From an uncultured Planctomycetales bacterium (GTDB taxonomy: Bacteria; Omnitrophota; Gorgyraeia; Zapsychrales; Zapsychraceae): a stretch of 64,000 nucleotides of DNA. Shown here piece by piece: positions 53,598 through 60,164 of this stretch. A program made the position numbers and the translations under genes. The stretch is from assembly GCA_964630825.1 (NCBI GenBank), contig CAZVZR010000006.1, positions 911 through 64,910 on the forward strand. The letters are read 5' to 3'. How positions within the stretch are numbered: position 1 is the first letter of the stretch; every line of letters begins with the position of its first letter. The notes beneath the pieces are model-generated. The model made no database searches, was not told where the DNA came from, and was given only the letters and a program-made list of their open reading frames with translations.

Positions 53598-53626
53598 GGA
53601 ACTTTTAATCTATTTCTTTTGTCTAA
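53598..53626 (+). promoter_or_regulatory. ECF sigma-type promoter GGAACTT-N16-GTCTAA
   Basis: GGAACTT at 53598-53604, a 16-nt spacer, then GTCTAA at 53621-53626, ~45 nt upstream of the His-rich protein gene. This matches the sigmaE/ECF consensus. Confidence 0.5.
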
Positions 53627-53670
53627 CTAGTGAATAAAGGCAGAGTAGGAAAGCTAAAAAGGAGGTCACA

Positions 53671-54339
53671 ATGTTAGACAAAAAGAAAATTGAAAAAGCA
53701 TTTACCGTAGTATCGATTCTTACCGTATTATTGGCTTTAACGGCCCAACAAAGTGCGTGGGCAGATTGGGGACACAGGGATCATGATTGGGATGATCATT
53801 CTTGGGGACATTCCAGAAGCGATCACCATCATTATTATTATCATCATGAACATTATGAGCCATTCCCGTTTTTTGGCAGGGCGATATTTACCTTACCGGG
53901 TGGATATGTCTCTTTAATTTTTGGCGGGTCAAGGTATTATTATTATGATGGTATTTTTTACCGGAAACATTTGGATGGTTTTGAGGTGGTTACACCTCCC
54001 GTAGGAGTTATTTTACGGTTACCTCCACCGGAATGTTCGCCGGTTATCATTGATGGGACGACTTATTATGTTGGTAATGGCATATATTATCTCAATACGC
54101 CGCAAGGGTATGAAGTGGTTACACCTCCCGCAGCAACGGTGATTAAAACGGCGCAGTCATTGCCAACACAATCAATACCTGCTACTAATGAGGCATTTAC
54201 TCTGAATATTCCCAACAATCGGGGAGGATATACGGCAGTGATTCTGCAACGTTCAGGAACAGGGTTTGTCGGCCCACAAGGGGAATTTTATCAAGATTTT
54301 CCTTCGGTCGAGCAGTTGAAGGTTATGTACGTGAAATAG
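53671..54339 (+). CDS. secreted His-rich protein with internal repeats (GxYY…GYEVVTPP)x2
   Basis: Signal peptide. HRDHDWDDHSWGHSRSDHHHYYYHHEHYEPF metal-binding-like stretch. Repeated GIFY…GFEVVTPPVGV and GIYY…GYEVVTPPAAT. Strong SD AAAAGGAGG. Confidence 0.5.
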   Translation: MLDKKKIEKAFTVVSILTVLLALTAQQSAWADWGHRDHDWDDHSWGHSRSDHHHYYYHHEHYEPFPFFGRAIFTLPGGYVSLIFGGSRYYYYDGIFYRKHLDGFEVVTPPVGVILRLPPPECSPVIIDGTTYYVGNGIYYLNTPQGYEVVTPPAATVIKTAQSLPTQSIPATNEAFTLNIPNNRGGYTAVILQRSGTGFVGPQGEFYQDFPSVEQLKVMYVK

Positions 54340-54372
54340 TGAAGTAGAATATTTATAAAATAGAAGGCATCG

Positions 54373-57239: not shown

Positions 57240-58185
57240 AAAAGAACAGGTTGTTATTGCCGTAGCCATTCTAATTTTTGTATGGGCATGGGGAAAAAAA
57301 TCAAAGCCAACTGATTCTTCGGAAACAGTGAAAGTTGTTTATCCTCAAGTAGGCAATATTCGCCAGACGGTGTCAACGACGGGTACAGTTTTGCCTAAGA
57401 ACCGTTTGGAAATTAAACCTCCGGTTAACGGCCGGATTGAACAGATTTTGGTCAAGGAAGGCCAGCAGGTGAAAACCGGTGAAACAATTGCCTTGATGAG
57501 TTCAACTGAACGGGCAGCTTTATTGGATGCGGCCCGCGGCAAAGGTACGGAAACGCTCAAGTACTGGGAAGAAGTTTATAAACCTATTCCGCTTAGCGCA
57601 CCGATTGACGGCGAGGTGATCGTCGGGAAAACTCAGCCCGGGCAGACGGTGACAACTGCGGATGCGGTTATTGTTTTATCAGATCGTTTGATTGTGCGCG
57701 CGCAAGTGGATGAAACCGATATTGGTAAGATTAAAGAGGGACAAAAAGCAGCTGTTAGCCTCGATGCTTATCCGGAAACAAAAATTAATGCGGTCGTTGA
57801 TCATGTTTATTATGAGTCAAAAACCGTCAACAATGTAACTATTTATGAAGTGGATTTGATGCCAGAAAAAATTCCTCCCTTTTTCCGTTCTGGCATGAGT
57901 GCCAATGTGGAATTTATTGAAGAAAGCAAAGAAGATGTTCTTGTTTTGCCACTAAATGCTGTTAGCAAAGAAAAAGGCGAAACGTTTGTGATGGTGGAAC
58001 CTAAGGAAGGAAAAAAAGCTAAGCGCCAGCCGGTAACACTTGGCCTTGCCGATGATAAAAATGTTGAAGTCATTTCGGGAGTAAACGAGGAAGACGCGAT
58101 TATTTTAAAGTCAAAAAAATATTCTCTCCCTCACGATTCTGGCGGGTCCAATCCTTTCATGCCACAGCGAAGGAAAAAACAATAA
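57229..58185 (+). CDS. macA: MacA-type periplasmic adaptor (HlyD_D23 family)
   Basis: N-terminal TM, lipoyl and beta-barrel domains. Overlaps both the upstream and downstream genes. Confidence 0.75.
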   Translation: MKIKKEQVVIAVAILIFVWAWGKKSKPTDSSETVKVVYPQVGNIRQTVSTTGTVLPKNRLEIKPPVNGRIEQILVKEGQQVKTGETIALMSSTERAALLDAARGKGTETLKYWEEVYKPIPLSAPIDGEVIVGKTQPGQTVTTADAVIVLSDRLIVRAQVDETDIGKIKEGQKAAVSLDAYPETKINAVVDHVYYESKTVNNVTIYEVDLMPEKIPPFFRSGMSANVEFIEESKEDVLVLPLNAVSKEKGETFVMVEPKEGKKAKRQPVTLGLADDKNVEVISGVNEEDAIILKSKKYSLPHDSGGSNPFMPQRRKKQ

Positions 58186-58187
58186 GT

Positions 58188-60164
58188 ATGCTTGAGTTTA
58201 AAAATATCGCAAAATGTTACCGAACCGGCGCGGAGGAAGTTAAAGCGGTTGATCATGTTTCAGTAAAGATTCTCGCTGGTGAATTTGTTGCTATCATGGG
58301 CGCTTCCGGTTCAGGAAAATCAACCTTAATGCATATGCTGGGTCTTTTGGACAGGCCAGATTCCGGGTCATATTCTATCGCCGGTAAAGAAGTCACGGGT
58401 TTATCCGATGAACAATTAGCGGCGCTGCGCAATCGGTTAATCGGGTTTGTCTTTCAACAGTTTCATCTTTTGGGGCGCATGACAGCATTGGAAAATGCCG
58501 AACTTCCGTTAATATATGCTGGACGGCGCAATATGCAGGAAAAAGTCCATCAGGAATTGACGGCAGTGGGCTTGGCTCAGCGGACCACACACCGGCCCAA
58601 TGAGCTTTCCGGCGGGCAGCAGCAACGCGTGGCGATAGCCCGGTCGCTTGTCAATGACCCGTTTATCATTATGGCTGATGAACCGACGGGAAATCTTGAT
58701 AGCAAAAGTAAAGATGAGATTGTCGCTATTCTTAAAGGCCTGAATGCTCAAGGCAAAACAATTATCATGGTCACGCATGAACCTGAAATGGCGGCGCACG
58801 CCAGCCGTGTGATTATTATGCGCGATGGCAAAATTATTTCTGATGAAACACGTACTAAGCCTAAAATTTCCGCGCAGATGATGGATCCTCAGAAAGTTAT
58901 CGAGGAGGTTTTGACATCTTCACATAAAGCGTATGATCCCGCAAAGTTTTTAGATTCTTTTCATCAGGCGGTTTACGCGATGGTGTCGCATAAGATGCGT
59001 TCGTTTTTGTCTATTTTGGGAATTCTCATTGGCGTTGCCGCGGTGATTGCCATGTTGGCCGTCGGGCGCGGGGCACAAGAAACTATGGAGAAACAATTAG
59101 CTTCGTTGGGTTCTAATCTTTTGATGGTCAGGCCAGGCGAGGCGCGCAGGGAAGGAGTTTCTTTAGAGGCAGGAGCAGTCACCCGATTAAATTTTCAAGA
59201 TCTCAGTGCGCTTAGCCAGCTTCCTTCCGTCCGGCGGGTAAGCCCGTCGGTGAATGGCCATGTGCAAGTCGTCTACGGAAACAAAAATGCCAATACGCAA
59301 GTCGAAGGCGTTGGCGTGGAGTATGCCGAGTTGCGGGCGGCACAACCGACGGTGGGGCGGTTTTTTACCGAGGAGGAATTACGCAGCCGCGCCAAAGTCG
59401 TGATAGTGGGAACAACGGTCGTTAAGGAATTATTCGAGAATGCGGACCCGATCGGGCAAACCATTAGGATTAATTTGATAAATTTTCAGATCATCGGTGT
59501 CCTGCCATTTAAGGGAGCAAATTCCTTTCGCGACCAGGACGATACAATCGTGATGCCAGTGACAACGGCAATGTATCGATTGCTGGGCAAAGATTATGTT
59601 GACTCTATTTATGTGGAGGGGGAATCTTCACAGTCGTTAGAGCCTCTGCAGAAATCAATCAATGAAACATTGGTTAAACGCCACCGTATTAATGCTCATT
59701 CAGAAAACCAAGAGGGGGAAGCTTTTCAAATCCGTAATATGGCTGATATCAGAGCGGCGATGGAAACGACAACGAAAACCATGGGGATGCTGTTGGGCGC
59801 CATTGCCGCTATTTCACTTTTAGTCGGCGGTATCGGTATCATGAATATTATGCTGGTTTCGGTAACAGAAAGGACTAAAGAGATTGGTTTACGTAAAGCT
59901 ATCGGAGCTACCCGACGGGATATCATGATGCAATTTTTGGTAGAATCGGTTTTGATGTCCCTGATTGGTGGAATCTCAGGGATTGTTCTTGGCGTGGGTG
60001 CAGCATTTTTGATAACATTCTTTGCTGGTTGGACGATCAAAGTATCCATATCATCGATAATTTTAGCGACAACGTTTTCGCTGGGTGTGGGTATGATATT
60101 TGGTTTGTGGCCGGCCAATCAAGCCTCGCTGTTAAATCCCATTGAGGCATTAAGGTACGAATAG
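58188..60164 (+). CDS. macB: MacB-type ABC transporter (ATPase fused to FtsX-like permease)
   Basis: N-terminal ABC domain ([27 protein letters not shown]), a periplasmic domain, and 4 TM helices of the FtsX family. Confidence 0.85.

Follow-up and report, generated by a model that had tools for sequence, protein, structure and literature searches.

Among the extracytoplasmic function (ECF) sigma factors, the group ECF281 is described as a sigma factor gene followed by a zinc-finger anti-sigma factor at position +1 and by a PF13801 protein at position +2, and a role in heavy-metal stress has been suggested for it (Casas-Pastor et al. 2021, Nucleic Acids Research, PMC7826278). We analyzed a locus with this same order (54373-55922, with the zf-HC2 anti-sigma gene at 54920-55408 and the PF13801 gene at 55437-55922) in a window of 64 kb, i.e. 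the whole stretch of contig CAZVZR010000006.1 under study, from an uncultivated bacterium of the Omnitrophota. The description of ECF281 in PMC7826278 mentions neither a DUF6515 gene in front of these three genes nor MacAB-TolC genes behind them, both of which are present here; the likeness is one of gene architecture, and the “heavy-metal” label derives from the name of the Pfam family. Our literature searches found no experimentally studied member of ECF281, no functional study of ECF sigma factors with LTXXQ proteins or of efflux and envelope stress in Omnitrophota, and only passing mentions of DUF6515 in two papers, again with no functional study. Behind a single ECF-type promoter, seven genes on the + strand encode a secreted DUF6515 protein, an ECF sigma factor, its anti-sigma factor, a secreted LTXXQ protein and the TolC-, MacA- and MacB-like parts of an efflux pump, a content and order that an earlier note on this DNA had already listed correctly. 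We propose that these genes probably form an autoregulated ECF-sigma operon for envelope stress and efflux, rather than the zinc- or transition-metal-sensing circuit that the earlier note had suggested.

The sigma factor is nearest, among proteins of solved structure, to SigE, AlgU, RpoE and SigW (1e-26 to 1e-18), and the anti-sigma domain is nearest to RsiW, which places the module close to sigmaW-RsiW of Bacillus subtilis and sigmaE-RseA-RseB of Escherichia coli. Shared with these systems are a single-pass anti-sigma factor, a predicted autoregulated promoter and a gene for a periplasmic partner beside the anti-sigma gene; the -35 element GGAAC(TT) is as in sigmaE/AlgU, and the GAAAC of many related loci as in sigmaW. 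Unlike them, the anti-sigma factor has a periplasmic part of only 44 residues with a YFL end, the partner is a helical protein of the Spy/CpxP family in place of RseB, linked protease genes are absent, and the predicted regulon consists of efflux pumps and DUF6515 proteins, not of folding factors for outer-membrane proteins. In E. coli, spy belongs with mdtABCD and acrD to the envelope-stress regulons of Bae and Cpx, and a similar co-regulation of a Spy-family protein with multidrug-type pumps is suggested here (MacAB in the window, AcrB-like and MdtB/C-like pumps in related loci); an LTXXQ protein that inhibits the anti-sigma factor would likewise resemble CpxP acting on CpxA. Unlike BaeSR and CpxAR, the locus relies on an ECF sigma/anti-sigma pair instead of a two-component system, keeps its genes in one operon and includes a DUF6515 gene for which those systems have no counterpart. 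The CnrYXH-cnrCBA system of Cupriavidus metallidurans (ECF291) offers the combination of an ECF sigma factor, a small anti-sigma factor with a short periplasmic tail, a partner of the PF13801 family and an adjacent tripartite pump under the same sigma factor. Unlike that system, the sigma factor matches CnrH only at 1e-9, the anti-sigma factor is of the zinc-binding anti-sigma (ZAS), RsiW-like type, the partner profile matches NccX only at E = 1.2 and has no conserved histidine ligands, and MacAB is not a heavy-metal pump of the resistance-nodulation-division (RND) type.

The promoter lies at 53598-53626 on the + strand, with a -35 element GGAACTTT (53598-53605), a spacer of 14 nt and a -10 element TGTCTAA (53620-53626). 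This is equivalent to reading GGAACTT (53598-53604), N16 and GTCTAA (53621-53626), the textbook ECF promoter of the earlier note. A ribosome-binding site, AGGAGG, follows at 53660-53665, with 5 nt between it and the start codon of the first gene (ATG, 53671). The pattern GGAAC-N16-18-GTCTAA has a single match in the window, and shuffled sequences give 0.06; this pattern was taken from the site itself, and the real test is its conservation across genomes. A scan of GTDB species genomes gave 78 related loci, nearly all from metagenome-assembled genomes of Omnitrophota, with several genomes contributing two or three. In 1.25 Mb of sequence from these loci and the window, GAAC[TC]T-N14-17-GTCTA has 44 exact matches on both strands, compared with about 5 expected by chance on a rough estimate that assumes uniform composition. 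Thirty-nine of the 44 lie within 300 nt upstream of, and on the same strand as, genes of the module, namely DUF6515 (28), LTXXQ (6), anti-sigma (4) and sigma (1) genes. Alignment of the 39 sites with standard spacing uncovered conservation at positions that the search had not imposed: the G before GAAC (G-1) is kept in 38 of 39, the T before GTCTA (T+21) and the A after it (A+27) in all 39, and the two T positions after GAACTT in 36 and 34. The resulting consensus is GGAACTTTT-N12-TTGTCTAA. When up to one mismatch is allowed, 56 of 64 sites closely precede a gene of the module (DUF6515, LTXXQ, anti-sigma or sigma), and GAAAC emerges as a common variant of the -35 element. Because the motif recurs upstream of module genes from genome to genome, the promoter and its predicted regulon are well supported by comparison. 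The earlier note had staked its reading on the conservation of the promoter in front of orthologous operons, and the motif precedes the DUF6515 gene in 15 of the 16 loci that share the gene order of the window.

Just downstream of the -10 element, at a distance of about 5-6 nt, we also observed a weakly conserved TGAA(A/G)G (53630-53635 in the window; A at the fourth position in 31 of 39 sites), which may mark the region of the transcription start or a leader element. A scan of 43000-64000 with Rfam detected no RNA family.

The order DUF6515-sigma-anti-sigma-LTXXQ is found in 16 loci, and in about 12 loci TolC-MacA-MacB stands behind this module or in a permuted arrangement with it. The pump genes come directly after the module in L007, L009, L028 and L066, and after one inserted open reading frame (ORF) in L064; L021 and L030 have the permuted order sigma-anti-sigma-LTXXQ-DUF6515-TolC-MacA-MacB, and in L012, L018 and L024 the DUF6515 gene stands directly before TolC-MacA-MacB. 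In L017 the pump operon is transcribed divergently and has a motif-like site of its own with two mismatches. Other loci combine the same genes with RND pumps: DUF6515-MarR-MFP-RND-OMF-LTXXQ (MFP, membrane fusion protein; OMF, outer membrane factor) in L027, L042, L046 and L050, and MdtB/C-like pairs in L049 and L074. In the window itself, neighboring genes among the seven overlap by up to 14 nt or lie at most 45 nt apart, and no terminator-like sites were found between genes of the operon. Only one ECF-type site is present in the window, also when mismatches are allowed, so that sigma-dependent expression of the pump must come from read-through.

The sigma factor (54373-54933, +, 186 aa) is predicted to be an ECF, or group IV, member of the sigma-70 family, having regions 2 and 4 only (Sigma70_r2 7.7e-18; Sigma70_r4_2 2.6e-17) and scoring 117 against a cutoff of 42.9 for TIGR02937; it reaches the cutoff of none of the named equivalog models. 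The start of the anti-sigma gene (54920-55408, +, 162 aa; zf-HC2 26.8 versus a cutoff of 22.2) overlaps the sigma gene by 14 nt, and this overlap, together with the conserved motif, points to a co-transcribed cognate anti-sigma factor and an autoregulatory promoter. The product is a predicted membrane-anchored ZAS protein. Its N-terminal, cytoplasmic domain has the motif C4-x26-H31-x3-C35-x2-C38 (54929-55033), in which the H-x3-C-x2-C finger recognized by the earlier note is completed by an upstream fourth ligand, and all four positions are invariant in 22 orthologues. A single predicted transmembrane segment (about aa 94-118, 55199-55273; hydrophobic stretch AFVFPRLVPVLASILIGIFAVSIFF), conserved in position, leads to a short periplasmic tail of 44 residues (aa 119-162, 55274-55405). 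Conserved in this tail are EQxxYLAxL and the C-terminus (G)TxIExYFL; the extreme end, TxIExYFL-COOH, is invariant in the 22 orthologues and the rest of the tail varies. We take this end to resemble the hydrophobic C-terminal tripeptides that are recognized by PDZ proteases.

An invariant zinc site in a cytoplasmic domain could also act as a thiol-oxidation switch, being oxidized under oxidative or electrophile stress and releasing both zinc and the sigma factor in the manner of RsrA, with no sensing role for the periplasmic parts. Some ZAS proteins are indeed redox sensors, and the domain gives weak matches to the models of RsrA (E = 0.5) and ChrR. The best match of the domain profile to a solved structure is nonetheless RsiW (1.7e-6), followed by ChrR, and in RsiW the zinc is structural and control is exerted by regulated proteolysis. 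A purely cytoplasmic sensor would furthermore leave both the membrane anchor and the strongly conserved periplasmic C-terminus unexplained, and what the predicted regulon contains is not thiol-redox enzymes but efflux pumps and proteins of the envelope. We regard such a switch as very unlikely. The suggestion of the earlier note that the finger itself senses metal is not supported, since the finger belongs to the cytoplasmic anti-sigma domain; in known ZAS proteins, zinc is structural or redox-linked and does not serve to sense environmental metal.

In several related loci, ZAS anti-sigma genes stand as “orphans” behind the same ECF motif with no adjoining sigma gene, most of them next to an LTXXQ gene as their partner (L018:9277-9882, L049:8779-9291, L061:931-1425, L062:6854-7456). 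These would be extra copies under the control of the sigma factor that they presumably inhibit.

The gene after the anti-sigma gene (55437-55922, +, 161 aa) encodes a secreted protein of the Spy/CpxP/ZraP (LTXXQ) family, with a signal peptide and matches to PF13801 Metal_resist (40.2 versus a cutoff of 29.2) and PF07813 (25.7 versus 24.3). Its two motifs are LTDDQ (aa 59-63) and LSLEQ (aa 135-139; LTPEQ in most orthologues), and in an alignment of 27 orthologues Q63 and Q139 are invariant and no histidine or cysteine is conserved. The single sequence has no match in the PDB, and a profile of orthologues was needed to recover Spy (4e-11), ZraP (3e-7, over the helical core) and CpxP (5e-3). The LTXXQ gene directly follows the anti-sigma gene in about 20 of the 22 loci that have an anti-sigma gene and are not cut by the end of a contig, even where the sigma gene is absent (L049, L061, L062). 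Because it nearly always adjoins the anti-sigma gene, the LTXXQ protein is read as belonging with the regulatory switch, in contrast to DUF6515, a multi-copy output.

The first gene of the operon, which belongs to the family most commonly found behind the promoter, encodes a DUF6515 protein of 222 aa (53671-54339, +). It matches Pfam PF20125 over aa 46-160 with 76.7 bits against a cutoff of 24.9, and this family has no assigned function; the earlier note, likewise, had not recognized the protein as one of a characterized family. A predicted signal peptide (aa 1-31, 53671-53763), cleaved after AWA (AWA|DW), coincides with a helix at 4-24 of the structural model, and its hydrophobicity is conserved in the alignment. 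There follows a low-complexity segment rich in His, Asp, Tyr and Trp (aa 32-62, 53764-53856), whose His-rich stretch reads DWGHRDHDWDDHSWGHSRSDHHHYYYHHEHY; it is variable in the family, and in the model its predicted local distance difference test (pLDDT) lies below 50 over 33-59. The part matched by Pfam contains two four-stranded beta-meander repeats (aa 69-155, 53875-54135), with the alignment motifs GGxRYYYxDGxYY...VVxPP and INGxTYYxxNGxYY...GYxVVxxP and model strands at 80-107 and 123-150 (pLDDT >90). The earlier note had both repeats end in GYEVVTPP, which is true of the second; the first ends in GFEVVTPP. Beyond a disordered linker lies a C-terminal module (aa 172-222, 54184-54336; FTxNIPNxxGGY...GFxGPQGEFYxxFPxVEQLKVMY), which holds most of the invariant columns (G198, G201, P202, Q203, E205, Y207, F210, L216, Y220) and is modeled as a strand and a helix at 175-220 (pLDDT about 94). 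Scanned alone, this module has no match in Pfam. Omnitrophota-type proteins thus share the beta-meander repeats with the DUF6515 of Pfam, and add to them a variable segment rich in H, R, D and Y and a C-terminal module that has no Pfam model.

The profile search and structure prediction that the earlier note had proposed for this gene gave, besides the Pfam match, an AlphaFold2 model (109 sequences, mean pLDDT 81) with no relative in the PDB: a Foldseek search with it found nothing below E = 0.67, and a sequence search of the PDB nothing significant, the best E being 1. A search of 5.8 billion proteins returned 219 homologues, nearly all metagenomic and, where named, from Candidatus Omnitrophota. 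When 1.84 billion cluster representatives (clusters at 50% identity) were searched with a profile, 5,371 clusters were reached at E <=1e-3 and 337 at E <=1e-30; the proteins of the window are themselves singletons in the cluster look-up. In proteins of 260-416 aa (P0209, P0210, P0212), we observed three to six tandem copies of the C-terminal module (profile positions about 158-210), which suggests that it behaves as an independent domain. The YY-x-x-G beta-hairpins recall the “YG” repeats of choline- and glucan-binding proteins, and cell-wall-binding repeats were considered on that account; no Pfam match to such repeats appeared even at E up to 10.

The metal-binding potential of these periplasmic proteins is the basis for a different explanation, in which the operon would be a dedicated circuit for a transition metal (Zn, Ni, Co or Cu): DUF6515 or the LTXXQ protein would bind the metal in the periplasm and relay its presence to the anti-sigma factor as CnrX does to CnrY, and MacAB-TolC would remove the metal or a complex of it. 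The PF13801 score above cutoff and the phrase “related to heavy-metal stress” used of the ECF281 architecture (PMC7826278) both speak for this, the latter by way of the Pfam name. So do the 10 histidines among the 31 residues of the segment in the window, histidine being also its commonest residue family-wide, and the rank of ZraP as the second-best solved match of the LTXXQ profile. The LTXXQ paralogues linked to RND pumps (L042, L046, L049, L050, L061, L062) moreover have tails rich in His, Cys and Met. The histidines are not a fixed feature, however. Among 109 homologues the segment is between 3 and 41 residues long and biased in composition (H 17%, R 15%, G 13.5%, D 12%, Y 10%, W 7%), with five or more histidines in 28 homologues and two or fewer in 36; the 10 of the window are the second-richest case, the orthologues in operons with both sigma and MacAB genes have 2-4, and we found no association of His content with pump type or with linkage to a sigma gene. 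The invariant residues of DUF6515 are Gly, Pro, Tyr, Gln, Glu, Phe and Leu, and none is His or Cys in the 109 sequences. The His-rich tail that the earlier note saw on the LTXXQ protein is EEHKHEG, with two histidines only, so that this detail was overstated; nor does the protein, in which no histidine is conserved, qualify as a sensor of the CnrX/NccX type, which would have conserved metal-liganding His, Glu and Met residues.

The pumps give the same picture. Eight RND proteins from the window and related loci, encoded beside DUF6515 or LTXXQ genes, were scored against equivalog models, and several pass the cutoffs of AcrB-type or MdtB/MuxB models (e.g. TIGR00915, 1542 versus 940; NF007798, 1597 versus 1584). 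Against the CusA/CzcA model TIGR00914 (cutoff 701) the same proteins reach 234-406, with no match listed for one of them; none of these predicted pumps of the regulon is thus placed among the heavy-metal RND exporters. With a sigma factor much nearer to SigE and RpoE than to CnrH, an anti-sigma factor that is RsiW-like and not CnrY-like, and an LTXXQ profile far closer to Spy than to NccX, the conserved features of the predicted proteins do not point to a metal, and we consider a dedicated metal circuit unlikely. What remains of the proposal made in the earlier note is the autoregulated induction of a dedicated tripartite exporter, to which the ECF promoter, the sigma/anti-sigma pair and the MacAB-TolC genes in one packed operon all point; the metal specificity is not supported, nor is the role of the His-rich protein as sensor, since the segment is predicted to be disordered and is not conserved.

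DUF6515 looks instead like an output of the response, i.e. an induced effector in the periplasm or associated with the outer membrane. Its genes occur in several copies per genome, often behind a promoter of their own with no sigma gene nearby, and 27 of the 58 that were scored have neither a pump nor a sigma gene in the vicinity; a multi-copy family with this distribution fits an output gene and not a sensor. An RseB-like regulatory or sensing role was considered for DUF6515 and rejected on the same grounds, the LTXXQ protein by contrast being the one that stays with the anti-sigma factor. Some homologues have N-terminal glycine-zipper domains of the type found in outer-membrane lipoproteins. 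One could also imagine a secretion system, in which DUF6515 is exported by Sec and then handed outward by MacAB-TolC as cargo or as a partner in surface assembly, with the ECF module timing its production. The signal peptide would allow this, MacB is known to take periplasmic substrates such as the enterotoxin STII, and the gene does lie directly before tolC-macA-macB in five loci (L012, L018, L021, L024, L030) and in the same operon as the pump in the window and five more (L007, L009, L028, L064, L066). DUF6515 is found just as often with RND pumps or with no pump, however; a folded protein of two domains and about 190 residues is far larger than the known peptide cargo of MacB, and the glycine-zipper domains suggest residence in the envelope over release. 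We give this secretion scheme hardly any credence.

A second DUF6515 gene was looked for in the window and is absent. In about 20 related loci, we observed that the DUF6515 gene is directly followed by a gene for a small lipoprotein of 125-160 aa (LAGCATS...PYYVIGKV...GADAIIN...GELIVY; e.g. L061:2754-3128, L073:10332-10730, L025:3099-3572). It belongs to no Pfam family and was not found in the window, and it is probably part of this regulon as well, or of one functional unit with DUF6515.

The last three genes of the module encode the pump. The TolC-like outer-membrane channel (55968-57239, +) matches OEP in two repeats (1.6e-66) and TIGR01844 with 176, below the cutoff of 225; ATG 55968 is its likely start in an ORF that opens at TTG 55950. 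The MacA-like periplasmic adaptor (57229-58185, +, 318 aa) has HlyD_3, HlyD_D23 and Biotin_lipoyl_2 domains and scores 109.9 against 94.9 for TIGR01730. The MacB-type ABC exporter (58188-60164, +, 658 aa) combines ABC_tran, MacB_PCD and FtsX domains and matches the MacB model NF007826 at 1.7e-162, with 542 against an equivalog cutoff of 966. A fused nucleotide-binding domain, periplasmic core and FtsX part encoded together with an HlyD-family adaptor and an OEP channel bears out the MacAB-TolC assignment. The equivalog models for MacB, MacA and TolC all stay below their cutoffs, and the predicted pump is a member of the MacAB-TolC family, not a set of orthologues of the E. coli proteins. The MacA model aligns to the adaptor in two stretches, with about 24 residues (about aa 98-122) in place of some 100 hairpin positions of the model; the alpha-hairpin that contacts TolC may be very short, and orthologues are of similar length.

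We propose that in the resting state the co-translated anti-sigma factor would use its N-terminal zinc-binding domain to retain the sigma factor at the inner membrane, as in its homologues. A tail of 44 residues is too short to contain a sensor domain, which makes the adjoining LTXXQ protein the best candidate for a periplasmic partner, and this Spy/CpxP-like protein may bind or shield the tail. Damage to the envelope, in the form of misfolded envelope proteins, toxic amphiphiles or possibly metals, would titrate the LTXXQ protein away, and the exposed tail with its conserved hydrophobic C-terminus would be subject to regulated proteolysis, by which the sigma factor is released. Free sigma factor would then read GGAACTTT-N14-TGTCTAA and transcribe the genes from DUF6515 through macB and possibly the 690-aa gene that follows. 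The output would include more sigma factor, as positive feedback, and more anti-sigma factor and LTXXQ protein, as negative feedback and added chaperone capacity, along with the tripartite MacAB-TolC exporter and the secreted DUF6515 protein.

Several points weigh against this model of an envelope-stress operon. The host of the operon is uncultivated. We infer the binding of the LTXXQ protein to the tail and the proteolytic cascade from adjacency, tail length and the analogy of CpxP-CpxA, RseB-RseA and CnrX-CnrY, and read-through over the 6.5 kb from the promoter to macB is assumed from the packing of the genes. The DUF6515 protein lacks a solved structural relative, and its role as effector is putative. 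Locus L007, the one exception among the 16, has the gene order of the window from DUF6515 to MacB, yet the 183 nt in front of its DUF6515 gene contain no motif. To these must be added the unusual richness in His of the DUF6515 protein of the window and the His-, Cys- and Met-rich tails of the RND-linked LTXXQ paralogues described above. E. coli Spy and ZraP, furthermore, are induced by and respond to zinc or copper, and metals stay possible inducers of this operon as well. In L007:1-260, we observed the end of an unrelated ORF at a distance of about 40 nt from the DUF6515 gene, on its upstream side.

Taken at its fullest, the scheme would be a hybrid signaling design for which there is no characterized example: a protein of the Spy/CpxP family as periplasmic gatekeeper of an ECF anti-sigma factor whose sole extracytoplasmic feature is a 44-residue tail with an invariant YFL end, this YFL serving in cis as the ligand of a PDZ protease once the tail is unshielded, and DUF6515 as the principal output, a new type of periplasmic protein accessory to MacAB and RND pumps. 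We put this forward as a tentative idea and think it doubtful that all of its parts will hold.

Beyond macB, a gene for a polytopic membrane protein of 690 aa (60170-62242, +) starts 6 nt after the macB stop codon and may extend the operon past the end that the earlier note had given it. Neither Pfam nor NCBIfam has a match for this protein, and none of the 78 related loci encodes a homologue; the C-terminal part of the protein is soluble, and the 3' end of its gene overlaps a convergent VTT/DedA gene (62117-62752, -) by 126 nt. Upstream, three tripartite efflux systems stand head to tail on the + strand and make up a 17-kb efflux island (43257-60164), composed of MarR-OEP-HlyD-ABC ATPase-ABC-2 permease (43257-47767), MFP-RND-OMF (47881-53496) and the ECF module with TolC-MacA-MacB. 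In the second of these, a single ORF of 1500 aa (48994-53496, +) covers both an AcrB-type RND permease and an outer-membrane lipoprotein of the NodT type, and no stop codon separates the two in frame. The lipoprotein keeps an intact start of its own (ATG, 52103) and an intact lipobox, LFNGC; about 10 nt upstream lies TGATAG, which is out of frame. In L027 and L042 the permease and the lipoprotein are separate genes that overlap by 4 nt. The long ORF reflects either an assembly error of 1 nt or a genuine read-through fusion.

The type of ECF module described here was known; what is new is the promoter, the link of DUF6515 to a regulon and to efflux pumps, and the finding that the metal label is poorly supported. 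For DUF6515, a family of about 5,400 clusters, this provides a first functional handle, since its genes are the ones found most often directly behind a conserved ECF promoter and keep company with genes for efflux pumps and Spy-like proteins. For the ECF281-like architecture, so far predicted bioinformatically only, it provides a defined promoter with support across genomes, with which the system should be easy to rebuild in a heterologous host, and it cautions that the label “heavy-metal stress” on PF13801 neighborhoods should not be taken at face value. The physiology of Omnitrophota is known almost only from genomes, and a predicted regulon that includes efflux pumps helps to interpret how these small cells may cope with toxic compounds.

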